A DNA stretch of 64,000 nt from the NCBI GenBank assembly GCA_964291215.2, contig OZ219790.1, positions 416,001 to 480,000 on the forward strand. The letters run 5' to 3'. This document shows positions 136 to 16,150 of the stretch, piece by piece. Each line of letters opens with the position of its first letter. Within the stretch, counting starts at the first letter, position 1. The notes below the pieces were generated by a model. It ran no database searches and was not told the DNA's origin. It worked only from the letters and a program-made list of their open reading frames with translations. The translations under genes and the position numbers were made by a program. The stretch comes from Alphaproteobacteria bacterium. GTDB taxonomy: Bacteria > Pseudomonadota > Alphaproteobacteria > MPNO01 > UBA830.

Positions 136-3100
136 TCAGTCACTCAGAAGGTATTGCGTGACCAGAGCCCGCATGATGGCCTCACCTCGTCCGGAGAGCC
201 GTCGAATGTCGACCTCCGACATCGCGGAGAAATCGGTCGGATAACGAATCACATCTTCTCTGTCGACCCAGTTGGCTGGCTTGAGCGGCACCCGCCGGTC
301 GATCTGTCCGAGAGCGGCGTAGACGAAGCCGTCAATGCGTTCCGCCTTGGCGTGCTCGTGTAGGCGTTGCTTGGTCGCGTCCTGGACCTTTCGCATGATT
401 GCGGAGACGACTTGGCTCATGCGCTTCGGCCAGCTGAGGGGGCGGATCTCGCCGGTGAACTGGCCGATCCCGGCGTCGCTTGCGATGATGATGTCGACGT
501 CGTAGTCAATCGTGCTGATCCGGGGATCCCGGTCAGGTTCCATGACGGTAATGCCGAGGTTCTCGAAAACGCCGCCATCGGTCACGATGACCCGCTGCAT
601 TTCGGTCTTGTCGTTTAGTTTGAACGGCCTTCTCCAGTCGAAGGGCGGAAGTAACGGCGGGTAAGCGGCCGAGGCTGCGACGGCGTCGGCCACGCGAAGT
701 TCTCTGGCCGGAGCCCATCCATACCGGTAGGAGCCGAAGCGTTGGTTGCTCATGCGGAAGGCAGTGCCGGTTCGAAGCTCACACGCGTTGAAGACGATCA
801 ACTTGTGCTGACGGGTGGGTGCATCGCATTTCTGCGGGCCGACCACGTCGGCAATGGCGTCGGCCAACACATGCGTTAGCGAGTAGCGGCGTCGGATGGG
901 CCACGAGGTGCGGGACAGCGCGGCGCATGCACTGCGGAGACCCGGGAAGAGCGAGGCGACACGACTCGCCGACCCGGTGAGGAGGTCGACAAGGAGCGTT
1001 GGGAAGGCGACGAAGACGAAGTTCCATACAAGGGGCGCAGCGCGCGCGGGATGGATGAGTTTCACGAGTCCCGGCACTACCAGGCCCCGGCGAAGGAACT
1101 GGACGATGTTGCGATCTATGTCGACGAACGGTGCTTCGGTATAGCCGAGCCTCCCGGTCATGACGGCCCCACCCGACACGCCGGAGATCACGTCGACCTC
1201 ATTGAGCAAGTTCAGGTCTTCGAGCGCGCGCAAGGCGCCAAGGTGAAACGCAACGGCGCGTGATCCGCCGCCAGAGAGTGCCAGACCGATCACCTTGTCG
1301 AGCGCCGCGACGGGAGGCGGAGTGGTGATGCCGCCGCGGACCGAAAGGGCCAGCTCGGTTTCGGTATCAAGCGCGGCGAGTTTCTGTTTCTGGAATGTGT
1401 AGACTCCGAGTTCCGGTTGCGTACGGACCGCGTGGCCGACGATCGCCATCAAATGATGGGCGCCGTCATCAGGAGCCGCTGTAAAGATGTCGGTGATGCC
1501 CAGGTAGTCGGTGAAGCTGGGTTGGGCACTACCGACCGGATGGGAATGCCAGGTGCCGATGTAGCGAACGATACCGTCGGTGCGCGCGCGGTAGTCCTCG
1601 CACAGCTCCCTCGTGCCGTGCGTTCCGCAAACGAAGCCCTCGGGAGAGAAGGTGCTGTCGCGCGGGGGGCCGCTGACGTTGGTAATCCACGCGATTCCGA
1701 GGGTCTCGTCCAACTCGCCGAACAGCAGGCCGCCGGTCTCGTGCTCGGCGGAGCGTTCACGGGCGCCGGCGCGGACCCAGCCCGTCATGTCGCGCCAGGC
1801 GTTCATGGACATGCGGAAGTCGATTCCATCGGCGATCCAGCGCATGTCGGGTCGAAAGCGGAACCTGTGCTCGCGACGATGGGGAGAGCACGAAATGAGA
1901 AGACCGCTGGCTGCATCGTCCGGTTCGGCGAGGATTTGGGCGAGAGCGTTGAGGGCTTGGGCAGAGAGCGCGGCGACATCGGTATGCGACGCCACGAAGG
2001 TCGGATTGGAGCAGCCGGGCTCGGGTTGGCGGAGGCCGTCGATGGCCCCCTGGGTCCAGAAGGCTTCGGACCAGTCGCTCAGCCAGTCCCGCGCGATGGC
2101 GGCGATGCCGAGACGGCGAAGCGCGTCGAGGGGGCCGGCGCGGTATCCGGTTGGAGCGAGCACCGCAACCGCTTGGCGGGCGGTGGCGCTGATCATCAAG
2201 GTCGCAATGGGAGCCTGGCGCTCGTGCTCCTTGAGCAGCGCCTCGAGCTTGCTGCGCACCTGCAGAGACGCGGTCGCGTCGATGATGAGGTCGGCATCCG
2301 CGTCCCAGTCCGGTTCGGCGAGGGTGTGCGAGATGAGGTCCTCGGACCGGGTCGTGACCTGAAGTCCGGGGGCGATGGATTGCAGACGCCCGGCAAGCGC
2401 CGCGGCCTTGGGCTCATTGGCGTCGAGTGCGGAGAAATTCTGCCGTATCAGCAGACTGGGAGCGACACGGCCTCGATCGAAGAGCTTGAGTTGGGACACA
2501 CCGGCGCGTACGAGATGTTCGGCGATGAGCCCGCCGATCGCCCCGCAGCCCCAGAGCGCAACGCGCTTGCCGCGAAACCAGTCCATCGATGTGCCCTCGT
2601 CGCGCCGAGTGATGACTTCGGGCCGGTTCTCAATCACATGACACCATCGTACACGGGCTTCCTTCCTCCAGGTAAACAAGGTGCCGAGGATGGTGTCGCT
2701 CAATGCCTGTATGGCAGCGGGAGTGTCCTGTCCTTTGTAGCGGTTGCTGAATTGGCAGGCGATGGATGCGGCGCGCAGCTTGGCGACGTCCCCCGGCTCA
2801 ATTTCCCAGAAGGTGAGGTGCTGGTTTCGTTGTGCGGGGTCGCCAGCGATGCCGCGCGACGGCGCACCGATGCCGATGTAGAGTGAGGTGCTATCGGGGA
2901 TCCGCTCGGAAGCGACCATCATGTGGGCAAGGAAGCGGTAGCCCAGACGTCCCTTGGCCTCCAGGTAGTCGAAAAGGTATCGTACTTTGCGCGGGTACTC
3001 GAACGGAAGCTCGAAGTTCAGCAGCACGGTCGGCGCAAACGGCATGTGGTCGGGGAGCGCATGCAGGGGGATCCACGCCTGGACTTCGAGAAGGGCCGGT

Positions 3101-3636
3101 TTGGGCTCATGGAGGGTGGCGGCGCCGAACCATGGCCAGGTATCACGAGCCGGGGTGTCGGCGTTGACGCAGATCGTAGTTGTGGCAACCGGGTAGGTGA
3201 CCGGCGGGTGCAGGGGTCCCTCGGGATCGTCGAGCTCGTTTCGCGCTCCGCGTCGAAACCACTCGTCGATCTGCGCCAAGAACCCGAACATGCCTTGGGA
3301 GGGGATCCACTGGGTCTCGGTGGACAGATAAACGCAGAGACGGGTTCCCCACTGCACATGGCCGAAGCCGTGGAACCGGGAATGGGGGGTGTCGACCGAC
3401 GGCGAACTGAATGGAAAATCCGCCGGCACCGAAAGCGTGATGCCTTCTCGGTCGTGCAGCGGAAGGCCTCCCTCGACACGCGGGTAGTGCGTGCAGTCGA
3501 GCGAGATATCGACGTTCAGATAAGCGCCGGGAGCCGGGTCATCGTCGATACCGACGATCCGGATGGGAGATCGGTGCGTATTGGCGATACGCCGGAGTTG
3601 GGTGAGGGCAATCCGTTGCCCTTCACTTATTGCCAC
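136..3636 (-). CDS. Four-domain fusion: E2/UBC-like + ThiF/E1 adenylyltransferase + JAB/MPN isopeptidase + patatin phospholipase (1166 aa)
   Basis: E2: FPFSSPSV..HVQWGTRLC (Cys101). E1: VALWGCGAIGG..FDRGRV..LIRQNF and PEPGC (Cys542). JAB: HETGG (E633) and WHSHP..SFTD (H697/H699/D710). Patatin: LALSGGGSRA, GVSGG (S821), DGG (D1020). Single uninterrupted ORF whose GTG start overlaps the end of the upstream MBL gene. Confidence 0.9.
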   Translation of the reverse strand: MAISEGQRIALTQLRRIANTHRSPIRIVGIDDDPAPGAYLNVDISLDCTHYPRVEGGLPLHDREGITLSVPADFPFSSPSVDTPHSRFHGFGHVQWGTRLCVYLSTETQWIPSQGMFGFLAQIDEWFRRGARNELDDPEGPLHPPVTYPVATTTICVNADTPARDTWPWFGAATLHEPKPALLEVQAWIPLHALPDHMPFAPTVLLNFELPFEYPRKVRYLFDYLEAKGRLGYRFLAHMMVASERIPDSTSLYIGIGAPSRGIAGDPAQRNQHLTFWEIEPGDVAKLRAASIACQFSNRYKGQDTPAAIQALSDTILGTLFTWRKEARVRWCHVIENRPEVITRRDEGTSMDWFRGKRVALWGCGAIGGLIAEHLVRAGVSQLKLFDRGRVAPSLLIRQNFSALDANEPKAAALAGRLQSIAPGLQVTTRSEDLISHTLAEPDWDADADLIIDATASLQVRSKLEALLKEHERQAPIATLMISATARQAVAVLAPTGYRAGPLDALRRLGIAAIARDWLSDWSEAFWTQGAIDGLRQPEPGCSNPTFVASHTDVAALSAQALNALAQILAEPDDAASGLLISCSPHRREHRFRFRPDMRWIADGIDFRMSMNAWRDMTGWVRAGARERSAEHETGGLLFGELDETLGIAWITNVSGPPRDSTFSPEGFVCGTHGTRELCEDYRARTDGIVRYIGTWHSHPVGSAQPSFTDYLGITDIFTAAPDDGAHHLMAIVGHAVRTQPELGVYTFQKQKLAALDTETELALSVRGGITTPPPVAALDKVIGLALSGGGSRAVAFHLGALRALEDLNLLNEVDVISGVSGGAVMTGRLGYTEAPFVDIDRNIVQFLRRGLVVPGLVKLIHPARAAPLVWNFVFVAFPTLLVDLLTGSASRVASLFPGLRSACAALSRTSWPIRRRYSLTHVLADAIADVVGPQKCDAPTRQHKLIVFNACELRTGTAFRMSNQRFGSYRYGWAPARELRVADAVAASAAYPPLLPPFDWRRPFKLNDKTEMQRVIVTDGGVFENLGITVMEPDRDPRISTIDYDVDIIIASDAGIGQFTGEIRPLSWPKRMSQVVSAIMRKVQDATKQRLHEHAKAERIDGFVYAALGQIDRRVPLKPANWVDREDVIRYPTDFSAMSEVDIRRLSGRGEAIMRALVTQYLLSD

Positions 3637-4780
3637 GACCGAATCCGACCGCGACGGCAGGCGGCGACGCGGCGACGCCGCCGACAGCCTTCAGCACCTC
3701 GCTCATGGAGCTGCTCGATTGTGTGTCGCCAACATATGCGAAACCGTTCCGGTCGACCTCGAAGATGATCGGCTTGGGATTCTTGCGGTTCGGGTGTTCG
3801 TGGGTGCACAGGAAGGCGTTGGCGACGATGCGTTCGTACTGTCTCTTCGCCTTGGCGTGAGGTGGGTTGTCGCCCGGGTCGTTGCGTGTCGGCACAGGTT
3901 CGGAACTCGAGACGACATGTCCCGGGTTGAGGGCTGCGGCAGCGATCTCGCGAACGATATGCTCCTTTAGGGTCTCGTCGCTGTCCCCCTCTTCCTTCCA
4001 GTACATGGCGGACTTCGAGCAATGATGCGGGGCGAGCAGCACATTCCAGGCGAGTGTCGTGCGGATACTTCGGTGGAAGATTCGCCGGATGACGGGATAG
4101 CTGAGGTCCCCCATGAGCAGTGCCCGGCCAGCGTGGTTGCCATTGTAGAGCGAGACCTGGAAGGCGAGGCTGCAGTCGTTGCGGTCACCGAAGCTGTCCT
4201 CGCGAAACGGGGCGTGGACAAACGCCTCGAACCGATTGGAGAGATCCTCACCGTCCAGTGTCGTAATGGTCTTACCGGGAATGGTCAGGAACTGCGCGGG
4301 GAAGCCACGAAACTCGCGTTCGCACAGAAGGTCGTCGTAGCCGATGATGCGAATGCGGTTACCCCGGCCGGGGTCGCCGCCCGCCCGGATAGCGGCTTGG
4401 ACGCGACGCATGGCCTCATCGTGAAAGGCTTGTGCGTCGTCGCAAAGGTCGTCGCCCTCCATGAATTCGCGAAAGGTGCGCGGCGACATCCAGAGTTCGG
4501 AGACGATGACGCGGCGTTTCAACTCCTCGAAGCCCTGGCAATGGTCGAGATCGGGATGGCTAAGTCCGAACACCGACAGGTATGGCGTGCCGCTGAGTCT
4601 CGGAAGGATACGTATGAGCTCGTCGATGACCGGCCAGGCGGGGTCGCTGCGGTTTCCCGCCTTGGCCATGTGCCGAAGGTCGATTTGAAGGTAAACCGTT
4701 TCTGTTACTCGAATGGTCGTGCTGTCGCCCGTGCCGACGGGCCAGAAGATGAAGCCCTGATCAGGTGGTTTGATGGCCAT
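3623..4780 (-). CDS. Metallo-beta-lactamase-fold (ComEC-like) hydrolase with a flexible C-terminal tail ending VGFG-RGNK
   Basis: Motifs VGTGDS, SHPDLDHCQG, NDCS..GDL and PHHCS. ATG at 4780 follows an AAGGGG RBS. Overlaps the next gene by 14 nt. Confidence 0.85.
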   Translation of the reverse strand: MAIKPPDQGFIFWPVGTGDSTTIRVTETVYLQIDLRHMAKAGNRSDPAWPVIDELIRILPRLSGTPYLSVFGLSHPDLDHCQGFEELKRRVIVSELWMSPRTFREFMEGDDLCDDAQAFHDEAMRRVQAAIRAGGDPGRGNRIRIIGYDDLLCEREFRGFPAQFLTIPGKTITTLDGEDLSNRFEAFVHAPFREDSFGDRNDCSLAFQVSLYNGNHAGRALLMGDLSYPVIRRIFHRSIRTTLAWNVLLAPHHCSKSAMYWKEEGDSDETLKEHIVREIAAAALNPGHVVSSSEPVPTRNDPGDNPPHAKAKRQYERIVANAFLCTHEHPNRKNPKPIIFEVDRNGFAYVGDTQSSSSMSEVLKAVGGVAASPPAVAVGFGRGNK

Positions 4781-4840
4781 GTTCCGCAATCCCCTTGGTT
4801 ATTATTGAAACCGAGCATACTGAGGAGAAACACTCGCCCA

Positions 4841-10651: not shown

Positions 10652-11551
10652 CTAAATCCCTGGGATGTAACCGAACGCTGACTTAACTATTGAACTGAAA
10701 ATGCCGACGACAATCGCCGCGAGTGCAACACGGTGCCGTGTGGCGCGATCTTTATTCTCCTCCAATATGTTTACCGGAAAAGCCCACTTCAAGTATCCAA
10801 ATAACGCCCGATAAATCACGAGAGATATTCCCATTCCATATATATAAAAGGCCACACGGAAGGACGAGTGATCGCCATCATTTGGAAGAAAGTAGTCAGC
10901 GTATACAGTAACCCAATACAGTGCGTACGGTAGTGCAAGAAACCAAAGTCCAACATCGTAGGCAAAACTCTCATGAATGAAGGAATACCACTTCTTTTTA
11001 GACTTGAATTTACTATTTGCGATGTCCCTAATTGCATGAAAGTAAGCAGAATTACATGCTTGAATTGATACGTTGCTGTTGTTGGGTGTTGGTTCAGACG
11101 TCAACGAATTGAAATCAAATAGCGGCGGTTTGTCGAACTGAAGCAAAACCGAGAAACGATTCGGAGGAATATTTCCATTCGTGTACTTTTTGTACGAGTT
11201 CTCATTCGTGAAATACACCGCTTTGATGGGAAACGGCAAATTCTGAGAATCGAAAATCTGCTCTGTCTCCCCGTACTTAGTTTGGCCTTCAAAACCAACT
11301 ACTGACACTGTCAACCGGAATGCACCATCCAACAGAACGTTTTTTCGTTCTGCGAATTCATCTTCGGTCTCGCCATCGAACTTGGGAACGGTAGCAACAT
11401 CCTGCTGTCCCTCCTTCCTCGTGAGAGTGTTTAATTCACGATATGCGGCTTTGATTTGTGGCAAGGATAACTGGCATCCGCGTATTGGTATATTGTCCTC
11501 CCACCACTGGATATCGTTTGCGGCATGGCTGATTAACGAAGTGCCGGACAT
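10652..11551 (-). CDS. AT-rich hypothetical membrane protein, soluble N-terminus with about three C-terminal TM helices (299 aa)
   Basis: Hydrophobic segments VGLWFLALPYALYWVTVYA, VAFYIYGMGISLVIYRALFGYL and VALAAIVVGIFSSIV. Visibly lower GC than flanks. GGAG RBS. Confidence 0.75.
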   Translation of the reverse strand: MSGTSLISHAANDIQWWEDNIPIRGCQLSLPQIKAAYRELNTLTRKEGQQDVATVPKFDGETEDEFAERKNVLLDGAFRLTVSVVGFEGQTKYGETEQIFDSQNLPFPIKAVYFTNENSYKKYTNGNIPPNRFSVLLQFDKPPLFDFNSLTSEPTPNNSNVSIQACNSAYFHAIRDIANSKFKSKKKWYSFIHESFAYDVGLWFLALPYALYWVTVYADYFLPNDGDHSSFRVAFYIYGMGISLVIYRALFGYLKWAFPVNILEENKDRATRHRVALAAIVVGIFSSIVKSAFGYIPGI

Positions 11552-11624: not shown

Positions 11625-12032
11625 TCAACATGGAGATTCGATAGGACCGGAGTTTATCCGAGTGGTCAGCGGGCAAATGTCCCAATCAAGGACGCGACCA
11701 AGCGAGAAGGCGCGGAATCGGCCTTTTCCTTCCTTGCCGTGCAGAATTCGCTTCTGTCCGTTCGAATGAAATCGCGATTGTTTCCACGATCCTCCCAGAC
11801 GGGAGAACAACCCCTCGGCTTCGGCAAAGGGAATGCCATGTCCGTTGTCGGCGACTCTGATGGCCTTGAGCCCGTCGAGGTCCTCTTCAACCAGCGTCAC
11901 GTCGATATGCGTGGCATCCGCATCGACTGCGTTCCAGATCAGCTCGGCCAGGGCAAGGAGGGGTTTTCGGGTCTGCGCGACCCGTTCCAGATGGTCGTCC
12001 TGAACCTGTATCTCAAAGGTCCTGGCGGTCAT
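11625..12032 (-). pseudogene. Truncated GHKL (HATPase_c/MutL-Hsp90-like) ATPase
   Basis: [22 protein letters not shown] and GKEGKGRF motifs. Similarity ends after about 120 aa. ATGA overlap with the hsdR stop. Confidence 0.8.
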
Positions 12033-15000
12033 GCTGCCCACTTCGCCGATAACGCTTCGGCCTGTTGCAGAACCGTCTGCACGGCGGCGTCCTGGAGGTC
12101 GGGCGGATACCCGTGCTTGCGGAGGATGCGCTTGACCAGAACCCGCATCCGGGCGCGGGCCGGCCCGCGGTGCTGCCAGTCCACGGAGGCTTTGCTTTTC
12201 AGCCCGTTCAGCAATTCCCGGGCGATGACGCGAAGGTGATCGTTGCCCATCACCTCGACCGCGCTCTCGTTCTGGGCCAGGGCATCGTAGAAGGCGATTT
12301 CCTCGGGGCTGAGACCCTCCTCCTCGCCGCGCCGGTGTGCGGCGCGGATGTCCTTCGCAAGCCCGATCAGTTCCTGAAGGACCTCGGCCGTCGTGAGGGC
12401 GTTGCCGTGGTAGCGGGCGATCGCTTCTTCCAGCCTCCGGGAGAAGGCCCGGGTCTGCACGACGTTGACCCGGCTTCGCGAGCGAAGCTCCCCGTTGATG
12501 AGCTTGCGCAGCGCCTCCAATGCGAGGTTCTTCTTCTCCATCTCCCGTATCTCGGCCAGGAACTCGTCGGAAAGGATGGAAATGTCCGGCGTATCCAGCC
12601 CGGCGGCTGCGAGAATGTCGACGATCTCGGTCGAAACGACCGCGCGGCTGACGATCTGCTGAACCGCCAGGTCCCGCTCCGCGGAGGACTTGCCGGCGCC
12701 GGGCGCGCTTTTGGCGAGCGCTGCACGGACGGTCTGGAAGAAGCCCACCTCGTCGCGGATTTCCCGGGCTTCGTCGCTGGCGGCCGCGAGCGCGAACGCC
12801 CTGGTGAGCGCCAGCACGGCGTCGTTGAAGCGGCGCCGGGCGTGCTTCTTGCCTTCTCCGGTCGATTCCCGGGCCGCCTCGCGGTGCTGCATGTCGAGGA
12901 CCCACTCGATGGCGCCGGCCAGCGCCGCGAGCCGCTCCTGCGGCGACCCGACAAGGCCGTTGCGGAAGTCGAAACCATGGAACATGGCGCTCACGATCTC
13001 GTACTTCTCCAGCATGACCGCGACGGCTTCGGCCTCGTCGATGCCGGCGTGCCTTCGGTCGTCGCGCGAGTACTGGCCGAGGGCGGACTTCAGGTTCTGC
13101 GCGATGCCGATGTAGTCCACGATCAGACCGGCGGGCTTGTCGCGGAACACGCGGTTGACGCGGGCGATGGCCTGCATGAGCCCGTGCCCCCGCATGGGCT
13201 TGTCGATGTACATCGTGTGCAGGCGCGTCGAAGCCGGTCAGCCACATGTCCCGCACGATCACCAGCCTGAGCGGGTCGTCCGCGTCCTTGATCCGCTTGG
13301 CGAGCAGCTCCCGGCGGGCCTTGCCTCCGATGTGGCGTTGCCAATGCGTCGGGTCCGACGCCGCGCCGGTCATGACGATCTTGATGACGCCGCTTTCGTC
13401 GTCGTCGCTGTGCCAGTCCCGGCGCAGCCTGACGATCTCGCCGTAGAGCGCAACGCAGATGCGGCGGCTCATGCAGACGATCATGGCCTTGCCGTCCATG
13501 CCGGCAATACGACTCTCGAAATGGTCGACCAGATCCCGGGCAACCAGGCGCAGGCGCTTCTCCGTCCCGACGACGGCCTCGACGTTCGCCAATCGTCTCT
13601 TGAGCCGTTCCTGCTCGCCTTCGGCCTCGTCCTCGATCAGTTCGGCGACCTCGTCGTCGAGCGCCGGCTTCTCACCTTCGTCGAGTTCGATGCGGACGAG
13701 GCGGCTCTCGTAGTAGATCGGTACGGTCGCGCCGTCTTCGACGCCGCGGTTGATGTCGTAGATGTCGATGTAATTGCCGAACACGGAAGGCGTGTTCACA
13801 TCCTCCCTTTCGATCGGCGTGCCGGTGAAGCCGATGAAGGAAGCGTTCGGCAGGGCGTCGCGCAGATATTTGGCGAAGCCGTAGGAAATCTCTCCGGTCT
13901 TGCGGGCCATCCTGGCGCGGAAACCGTACTGGCTGCGGTGCGCCTCGTCCGCGATCACGACGATGTTGCGGCGGTCGGAGAGGGCCGGGTATTCGATCTC
14001 GCCGGCCTCGGGTGCGAACTTCTGGAGGGTGGTGAACACCACGCCGCCGGACGGACGCGTCAGAGCCTGTCGCAGGTCCTCCCGGCTGTCGGCCTGCCGC
14101 GGGGTCTGGCGGAGCAGGTCGCGGCACATGGAGAACGTGCCGAACAACTGGTCGTCGAGGTCGTTGCGGTCGGTGAGGACCACGAGGGTCGGGTTCTCCA
14201 TCGCCGGGTGGGCGATGACCTGTCCGGCGTAGAACGCCATCAGCAGGCTCTTGCCGGAGCCTTGCGTGTGCCAGATCACGCCGATACGGCGATCGCCTGC
14301 CGGGCTCGTCGCGGTGATCGTGCGCTCGATCGCATGGCGTACGGCGTGAAACTGGTGATAGCCGGCCACGATCTTGACCAGTCCCGCGCCCGTGTCCCCG
14401 AACACGGTGAAGTCCCGGATCAGGGCCAGGAACCGGTTCTTCTCGAACACGCCTTCGACGACGGTTTCGATCTCGGGGGCGCCCTTCGATGCGACGGCGG
14501 CGCCGTCCACGGTGCGCCAGGGCATGAACCGCTCAAGATTGGCGGTCAGCGATCCGAACCGCGCCTGAAGGCCGTCCGAAGTCATGAGAGCGGCATTGGT
14601 GCGGAACAGGGAAGGTATCTCCTCCTTGTAGGTCCGGAGCTGGTTGAACGCCCCTTCGAGGGTGGCGTTTTCGTCGCCGGGGTTCTTCATCTCGATCACG
14701 GCCAGCGGCAGGCCATTGAGGAACAGCACGATGTCGGGGCGGCGATTGTGTTCGTGCTCGATCACCGTGAACTGGTTCACCGCCAGCCAGTCGTTGGCCT
14801 CGATGTCGTCGAAATCGATCAGACGGGCAGCGTCGCCGCCGATGCTGCCGTCCTCCCGCGCCACCTCGACCGGCACGCCCGCGATCAGGTAGCGGTGCAG
14901 GCGGCGGTTCTCCTCGACGAGGGAGGGAGTCTCCGTCTGCCGCACCTTGCGGAGCACCTCCTCCAGCGCCGCGGCGGGCAGGTCCGGGTTGAGGCGGGCG

Positions 15001-15164
15001 AGCGCCTCGCGGAACCGGCCGGCCAGCAGCACCTCGTCGTAGCTGCCCCGCTCCGGCGCCGGGCCTTCCGGGCCCATGTCCGGCCCATGAACCACGGCAT
15101 AGCCCAGTCCGGCGAGCCATGCGAGAGCCGCGTCTTCGACATCCGATTCGGAAAGACGGCTCAT
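12029..15164 (-). pseudogene. hsdR: Type I restriction enzyme R subunit, frameshifted near 13222
   Basis: [46 protein letters not shown], then MYIDKPM continues in another frame. Confidence 0.92.
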
Positions 15165-16150
15165 TCGCCGGATTCGCCCAGAAGATTGACGATAAGGCGA
15201 ATTATGAGATCCTTGTTCGACGGTGCGCTTTCGGCGATCAACAGGGTGAGCGCCGTCAACCCCCGGGGGTCGAGCCGGTGCGCGATTCCCTCCTGTGTCA
15301 GATAGAGCAGGAACAGCAGGGCGCCGATGCGCTTGTTGCCGTCGGTGAACGGGTGATCCTTGACCAGAAAATAGAGCAGGTTGGCCGCCTTGTCCGCGGC
15401 GCTGCGGTAAAGGGGTTCGCCGAACATGGTCTGCTCCACATTGCCGAGAATGGCTTTCAGGGCTTCGCCGCGCCGGGTGCCGAACAGCGATGTGGCTTCG
15501 CCCTTTGCCGCAAGATCGCTCCTGAAAGCGTCGATCGCGGCGACGGCGGTGTCGAGGCCGAGCGCGCTGGTGGCCGGCTTCGCGCCGGCCGGCGCCTTGA
15601 GGCGGTCCTCGTCGTATTCGAGCAGCACGCGCCACGTGTCGGCGTATCTTGTGATCAGGTCCAGTACGGACTGGCCCGTTTCGTCGACGAGCGCTTGGTT
15701 CCTGAGCGTCCGGGCGAGCAAACCCAGGGTTTGGCGCGCCTCGTCGAGGCCCCGCTCGGCAAGCCGCCGCTCATTCATCGTGTAACCGCTGACGAGATGC
15801 TCGCGCAAGGTGCGGGTGGCCCAGATACGGAACTGTGTGCCGCGCAGGGACTTCACCCTGTAGCCGACCGAGATGATCATGTCGAGGTTGTAGTGATCCA
15901 CCTCCCTGGATACCCTTCGCCCGCCCTCGGATCGAACCTGTGCAAAATTTGCACAGGTTGACCCTGGGTCCAGCTCTTGTTCACGGTAGGCGTTGTGGAT
16001 GTGCCGGGCGATTACGGAACGATCCCGCCCGAACAGTTCCGCCATCTGCGGCCGGGTCAGCCAGACTGTCTCCCTGTCGAAACGCACGTCCACGCGCGCC
16101 TCGCCGTCCCCGGACTCGTAGACGATGACTTCGCCGCCGGGGGAGTTCAT
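15161..16150 (-). CDS. RhuM-like virulence domain + Fic/Doc domain protein
   Basis: [14 protein letters not shown] and [21 protein letters not shown] (RhuM), plus [11 protein letters not shown] (Fic/Doc motif). Stop/start overlaps with hsdS and hsdR. Confidence 0.9.

Follow-up and report, generated by a model that had tools for sequence, protein, structure and literature searches.

The window analysed here, a stretch of 64,000 nt from contig OZ219790.1 of an alphaproteobacterial genome assembly, contains an operon of the known 6A-MBL system (operon 6a of Iyer 2006) in a patatin-fused form. The sequence conserved at the end of its metallo-β-lactamase-fold (MBL) enzyme suggests that the E2-E1-JAB enzyme encoded next to it likely uses this C-terminal tail as a substrate, and makes it probable that the JAB peptidase first trims the tail, after which the E1 and E2 activities conjugate the whole MBL enzyme. 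The operon was assigned to 6A-MBL because both of its proteins exceeded the cut-offs of the NCBIfam 6A-MBL models, the names of which also label this family as anti-phage. Its architecture matches type 6a of PMC1779556, and the MBL and partner genes adjoin on the same strand, a layout that recurred across the fetched loci. The features of the operon are the following:

3623..4789, minus strand: 6A-MBL enzyme with a ComEC-like metallo-β-lactamase fold, predicted to be a phosphodiesterase or nuclease (NF058524, conserved columns, structural model, Foldseek).
3650..3733, minus strand: flexible linker, residues 353-380 (pLDDT below 50 from residue 371; length and sequence vary in the alignments).
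3638..3649, minus strand: V381-G382-F383-G384, predicted conjugation handle, which would be the C-terminus once trimmed (homolog conservation, synonymous codon variation).
3623..3637, minus strand: extension R-G-N-K-TGA, predicted disposable cap (length variation, start-codon fit, gains and losses).
136..3636, minus strand: single-chain E2-linker-E1-JAB-patatin protein of 1166 aa, i.e. the 6A-MBL cap2_3 protein plus a fused patatin (NF058523, Pfam).
3148..3525, minus strand: prokaryotic E2 of family A, predicted catalytic Cys101 (PF14457, E 1e-18).
1837..2631, minus strand: ThiF/E1 adenylation domain, predicted catalytic Cys542 at 2013-2011 (PF00899, E 8.9e-19).
1357..1824, minus strand: JAB/JAMM zinc peptidase, predicted to trim the tail and to deconjugate (PF14464, E 1.4e-7; PADLOC, E 3.3e-20).
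139..1284, minus strand: patatin-like phospholipase (PF01734, E 5.3e-17; motif positions).

The MBL protein gave no match in a Pfam search and was identified by NCBIfam and by a fold search. It scored 285.5 bits against NF058524 (cut-off 220), the whole profile (1-346 of 346) being covered. Residues are numbered here as in the 388-codon ORF (3623-4789; 388 aa); since the homologs begin at MAIKPP, the true start is probably the ATG at 4780, giving a protein of 385 aa. Metal-binding motifs were found, and H78, D80, D82, H83, D228, H255 and H256 were invariant or nearly so in a 73-sequence alignment. In the AlphaFold model built with that 73-row alignment the core had a mean pLDDT of 90.6, and its last strand stopped at residue 352. 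The linker that followed contained one short helix (362-369) and then a low-confidence stretch rich in Ala, Gly and Pro; residues 371-388 had pLDDT values below 50 and were modelled as disordered. The top PDB match found by Foldseek was the β-lactamase-like domain of ComEC (9ic4; E 2.8e-12), and the fold search also matched the Pce phosphorylcholine esterase (2bib, 1wra; E 3.5e-10). The fold is common to these proteins, but identity is 18% or less, and the 6A-MBL enzyme has no membrane domains and shows no sign of antibiotic hydrolysis.

The partner protein scored 338.2 bits against NF058523 (cut-off 320), a model that covered residues 57-732 only, and matched the PADLOC E1-E2 profile with an E value of 1.3e-76. 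Pfam returned the domain order Prok-E2_A, ThiF, Prok-JAB, Patatin, and the E1 matched in sequence the Cap2 of 7TSQ and 7TO3. In all 69 partner proteins whose E1 and JAB share a single ORF, these residues were invariant (69/69): C101 of the E2; G363, G365, D387, R398, K410 and C542 of the E1; and E633, H697, H699, S707 and D710 of the JAB. E1 position 453 was Asp in 63 and Asn in six. We take the catalytic roles of these residues from their conservation and from knowledge of the families. They were equally intact in systems in which the MBL tail carries residues beyond the conserved Gly (capped) and in those in which it does not; intact residues alone do not therefore demonstrate trimming by JAB. 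The patatin motifs GGGxR (789), GxSxG (Ser821) and DGG (Asp1020) were all present.

An earlier sequence-only reading of this DNA had described a VGFG motif plus four residues, placed after the linker and encoded in the overlap with the next gene, and had taken it for the substrate of the E1/E2/JAB enzyme in an operon with no ubiquitin-like (Ubl) gene. The tail is as described: positions 3623-3720 (minus strand) encode MBL residues 357-388, the last 32, ending in PPAVAVGFGRGNK-stop, and the C-terminus reads PPAVAVGFG-RGNK-stop. The two genes, both on the minus strand, overlap by 14 nt, and the GTG of the partner gene (3636-3634) spans two codons of RGNK, taking its GT from the end of the Arg codon and its final G from the start of the Gly codon. 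No ubiquitin-like gene was found beside the operon, and no CD-NTase or cyclase gene in it or beside it (operon and flanking ORFs; Pfam, PADLOC and inspection by eye). The conserved Gly and aromatic residue of the tail, together with the intact catalytic residues of the partner, agree with the tail being a likely substrate. A complex prediction with two E1-JAB copies (residues 332-762), Zn, ATP and the 42-residue tail gave a score of 0.11 (mark, 0.32), which speaks neither for nor against binding.

The Gly of the tail proved to be conserved. Among the best 120 of 2536 homologs, 117 ended in GFG plus three or four residues; two of the remaining three had GRIRS, a reading of this DNA in a different frame (cf. 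ORF 3627-4022). Over 73 sequences with a mean column identity of 29%, G384 was conserved at 90% or more. The loci were then considered (118 of the 133 fetched, leaving out 12 short duplicates, two with a tail identical to that of the window, and one repeat). Of 101 MBL ORFs lying upstream of an E2/E1 ORF, 100 ended in an aromatic residue plus Gly (F/Y/H-Gly) or in RAG, followed by 0-8 residues, a count to be read with the pattern having been drawn up after the tails were inspected and with the loci being related and skewed to close homologs. The sole exception was a truncated ORF on a 1.2-kb contig. The skew, towards 40-70% identity, arose because the metagenome scan used a 21-sequence alignment, chosen since the 73-sequence alignment was too diverse for that scan. 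Twenty of the 100 motif-bearing MBLs terminated exactly at the Gly, and 80 bore 1-8 further residues. In the control set, the 1109 long ORFs of this genome that look coding, the same pattern was seen in 89 (8%), and GFG within eight residues of the stop in three. The alignment of homolog C-termini that the sequence-only reading had proposed thus returned the conserved Gly motif and variable extension it had anticipated (100/101 versus 8% of control ORFs).

A further 24 MBL-matching ORFs had no E2/E1 next to them: 10 were ComEC-like paralogues, four were family members and 10 were fragments. The motif was absent from the last eight residues of all 10 distant ComEC-like paralogues, which have no E2/E1 downstream, and present in all four family members, which sit at contig ends. 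In two members of the family the MBL is fused to an AGS_C domain, and these had no tail; a plasmid search for such fusions gave no record covering 80% of the query. Six annotated plasmid operons had MBLs ending in RAG-stop (three), TQG-stop, GFG-AE and RAG-VSNQ, and the type-6a operon of Polaromonas naphthalenivorans, which passes the same two NCBIfam models, has an MBL ending in RAG-stop. About a dozen full-length distant representatives showed FA, YA or other endings, or no clear motif. One of the homologs (P0262) ends in GTGRFA, close to the KTGRFA of the Enterobacter cloacae cGAS, which is adenylated by Cap2 according to the part of the source available.

The residues beyond the Gly behaved differently. 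Their number varied from 0 to 8 across relatives, and their identity followed the overlapping gene start. In the close homologs the codon of the first extension residue can end in AT or GT in 117/117 cases and that of the second starts with G in 115/117, both residues fitting an overlapping ATG or GTG in 115/117; in the wider loci all 20 amino acids occurred at the first extra position. The start codon of the next gene was callable in 62 of 92 loci, and in 56 of the 58 capped loci among these it lay at or before the MBL stop. Both shifted frames were used by the next gene, most of whose starts lay at +2 to +17 relative to the Gly codon. A quick tree built from 96 MBLs showed eight changes of cap state, at least seven of these changes being forced by well-supported branches: L018, for instance, ends in HTYG-stop, and its sisters L014 and L015 in HTYG-RA. 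Within the clade of this MBL 72 of 75 members had the cap, while 16 of the 21 outside it ended at the Gly. The RG following GFG looks conserved among close homologs. The possibility that it is a protease recognition site was considered and rejected; RG tracks the start codon that overlaps it and is lost in more distant members. Since the extension was repeatedly gained and lost, and its letters track the overlapping start codon, it looks disposable, and the removal of RGNK put forward in the sequence-only reading is likely. A conserved Gly beneath a freely changing cap has the look of a cleavage site.

The preferred reading, with JAB trimming the tail ahead of conjugation, would run as follows. 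JAB would cut the G384-R385 bond and remove RGNK; the E1 would adenylate G384 and then hold it as a thioester on C542; the MBL would pass from C542 to C101 of the E2 and, during infection, would be ligated to a lysine or the N-terminus of a phage or host protein. This ligation would position the ComEC-like nuclease or activate it, and JAB would also undo the link between the MBL and its target. The extension would exist since the tail codons overlap the initiation region of the next gene, with JAB rendering the extra residues harmless. In capped systems JAB would be required for activity, because the Gly would first need uncapping. The search for conjugates in a JAB-dead background suggested in the sequence-only reading is flawed in this respect: with a capped tail none would be expected to form, except from a pre-trimmed MBL. 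Loss of JAB should abolish defence in capped members, with Gly-terminal members keeping or increasing conjugation. If right, this reading would also account for a reactive C-terminus whose codons run into the following gene.

With the 6A-MBL systems already described this operon shares an MBL gene followed by a gene for a single-chain E2-E1-JAB (both above the curated cut-offs), the lack of a Ubl or cyclase gene, and an MBL tail with an aromatic residue and Gly. It differs in having a patatin fused behind the JAB, outside the coverage of NF058523, and in having its Gly capped by four residues. The operon is predicted to work like the ligation step of Type II CBASS without being CBASS. In the available text of 10.1101/2022.03.31.486616, Cap2 adenylates the disordered tail of cGAS, Cap3 cuts a cGAS-GFP peptide bond just after the last cGAS residue, and Cap3 is dispensable for CBASS defence. 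Both systems have an E2-E1 ligase with two catalytic cysteines plus a JAB peptidase, and the substrate of both (here by prediction) is a folded enzyme, not ubiquitin-like, that is acted on at its disordered C-terminal tail, with similar tail chemistry, an aromatic residue followed by Gly or Ala. However, there is no CD-NTase here, the predicted substrate is an MBL hydrolase and the JAB is fused; in CBASS the encoded chain ends at the reactive Gly or Ala, whereas here Gly384 is followed by RGNK; and JAB is predicted to be required rather than merely inhibitory. Against the Cap3 model the JAB scored 23.4, far under the cut-off of 200. The exposure of a reactive Gly by JAB pre-processing, predicted here, is a feature of BilABCD and Bub: in the available parts of the sources BilC is shown to process BilA, and BubCD to process BubAB (PMC10557695, PMC11601596), the trimming of BilA exposing a Gly (PMC10557695). 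Their substrates, however, have the β-grasp ubiquitin-like fold, while the one predicted here is a 385-aa enzyme, and Bil has separate E1 and E2 proteins, in contrast to the one chain found here.

If right, the proposal would extend ubiquitin-style ligation of a whole enzyme from cyclases to a nuclease-like hydrolase, and 80 of the 100 predicted substrates sampled here would escape a scan for a terminal Gly or Ala. The final version of Ledvina et al. 2023 reportedly discusses MBL operons; the accessible portion of its preprint makes no mention of the MBL. The system name, 6A-MBL, is already known, and a 2024 discussion counts MBL pathways among those that conjugate their own enzyme (PMC11601596). 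The core idea being in print, the present finding refines it usefully but does not amount to a new type of system. In the open-access text searched, descriptions were found neither of a patatin-fused E2-E1-JAB nor of a cap encoded in a gene overlap, both of which the two primary 6A-MBL papers may cover.

In 100 loci surveyed for patatin, 30 were uninformative, ‘absent’ requiring at least 600 nt of room; in the other 70 it was fused in 28, a separate next gene in 17 and absent in 25, and in L038 a metallophosphoesterase is fused where the patatin would be. The patatin is thus a swappable accessory effector of this clade. The sequence-only reading had also offered the patatin fusion as a target of conjugation; such a link is possible, but nothing in the analysis favours it. 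It appears doubtful that the operon forms a single-chain immune switch in which JAB, as an obligatory licensing step, removes a cap forced by the gene overlap, the whole MBL is ligated to a phage protein or to the fusion, and this ligation switches on the fused phospholipase; were this true, conjugation would be wired to membrane destruction without a second messenger, cyclase or ubiquitin. Unlikely, too, is a tail that is trimmed and activated only for the MBL to stay on its partner, as a thioester on C542 or C101 or as an isopeptide on the fusion; such loading would either keep the nuclease inactive or serve as a switch for the fused patatin. Cap2 itself is modified at five sites in CBASS, according to the part of PMC10449767 available, and patatin was fused or adjacent in 45 of the 70 informative loci, and 44 of the 45 had a capped tail; these loci are not independent, since the association of cap with patatin runs along a single clade. 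Retention of the motif and catalytic residues in the 25 loci with no downstream patatin argues against such loading, as does L038, with its metallophosphoesterase and no patatin.

Something other than JAB might instead remove the cap, either the cysteine of the E2, with protease or transpeptidase activity, or a host or phage protease serving as the trigger. For E2-only CBASS, the available part of PMC12948482 describes an E2 that works as a protease on the tail of the cyclase, and one preprint bears the title ‘Phage protease enzymes activate CBASS antiphage immunity’. JAB and E1 were, however, intact in 69/69 partners, the JAB enzymes of the sister systems cut exactly such peptide bonds (in the portions of the sources available), and the extension offers an outside protease no conserved sequence. 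Removal by anything other than JAB is accordingly quite unlikely.

Short disordered tails commonly serve as binding motifs. The tail might thus be a non-covalent docking peptide for the E1 or JAB, the ligase acting on another molecule, and an uncut extension would indeed prevent adenylation. A Gly, replaced by Ala in some distant members, at or near the C-terminus, with free variation beyond it, nonetheless fits a cleavage and ligation site, and no alternative substrate is encoded nearby; docking alone therefore seems very unlikely.

The nucleotide sequence of the tail may have a second use. The first Gly codon was GGA in 31 of 68 tails (46%), compared with 19% in MBL bodies, and in the clade of this MBL this GGA lies about 7 nt ahead of the partner GTG. 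This enrichment suggests use as a ribosome-binding site, from which part of the conservation of the tail may come. Such use alone cannot explain the motif, because the codons vary (every one of the four Gly codons was seen at each of the two Gly positions, and Phe, Tyr and His each used both of theirs) and the frame and offset of the next gene vary as well. The least probable explanation is that GFG is kept purely for RNA-level reasons (ribosome binding, translational coupling) with the MBL not being a ligase substrate: the GGA excess speaks for it, as does an extension that overlaps the start of the following gene in 56/58 capped loci, but GG stays an in-frame Gly after an aromatic residue through all this variation in codons, frame and offset, 20/100 MBLs end exactly at the Gly, and the operon has no other candidate substrate gene.

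The surroundings of the operon look like a mobile defence island. Transposase-like ORFs were recognized by eye downstream of it, beyond the left edge, and to its right lie genes for Ssb, a Doc-like protein and HsdR, of which HsdR and Ssb alone were above cut-offs. A 116-aa ORF upstream of the operon had no Pfam or PADLOC match. A promoter-like site at 4874-4845 was set aside as being at chance level (one found, 0.7 expected). The anti-phage activity of 6A-MBL is credited to van den Berg et al. 2024 in the accessible part of a review (PMC13276650), and the system is listed among jumbo-phage defences in the available text of a preprint (10.1101/2025.09.30.679545). In a sample of 401 genomes from the phylum, 11 had a member of the MBL family above cut-off, and in one of 401 from the class, seven did, this genome being included in both counts.

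In one related 6A-MBL operon, that of locus L038, a calcineurin-like metallophosphoesterase is fused to E2-E1-JAB (L038:6128-9622) at the position where the patatin, the phospholipase-like domain, would be expected; the counterpart in locus L041 has the same length and the same tail. This replacement of patatin by a metallophosphoesterase shows the C-terminal effector slot of E2-E1-JAB to be swappable. Patatin genes also adjoin more distant 6A-MBL operons (L137, L139, L128, L052 and L098), where they lie downstream, convergent, upstream or on the opposite strand. Two of these flanking genes, and a second ubiquitin-type cassette found immediately upstream of the 6A-MBL operon in L016, are as follows:

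L137:7433-8755, patatin gene flanking a distant 6A-MBL operon
L139:7338-8510, patatin gene flanking a distant 6A-MBL operon
L016:2202-5958, second cassette, comprising two small ORFs of E2-like appearance, one ThiF and one JAB protein, and a ComEC-like MBL

The ComEC-like MBL of this cassette is tail-less. None of the second-cassette proteins reached a cut-off in the NCBIfam profile comparison; similar genes were found in L007, L014 and L019, and in part in L015. In L016 an 88-aa ORF lies ahead of the cassette; its product ends in LGGEYG-WRSTPA and is a possible capped substrate.

Some homologous MBL proteins carry extra domains. In P0252, the 6A-MBL-like enzyme does not end at its PHG motif but extends into an additional domain of ~250 residues, E2-like in appearance when judged by eye and without a match in a Pfam search; the protein may be a naturally occurring pre-protein fusion, or else a read-through. 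P0250 and P0260 have an AGS_C sensor domain fused to a 6A-MBL-type MBL and lack the Gly tail, possibly forming a ligase-independent branch.

Several related operons, those of L012, L016 and L124, are broken by 1-3 kb insertions or frameshifts. Elsewhere in the window's island lie:

10652-11551 (-), 299-aa ORF of low GC (~48%) with hydrophobic C-terminal segments
11625-15635 (-), HsdR (TIGR00348, above cut-off)
12029-13213, ORF resembling the C-terminus of HsdR

The 299-aa ORF had no match in NCBIfam. The HsdR match in the long ORF stops near residue 806, and the gene appears to be divided over frames, possibly through a frameshift or an assembly error.
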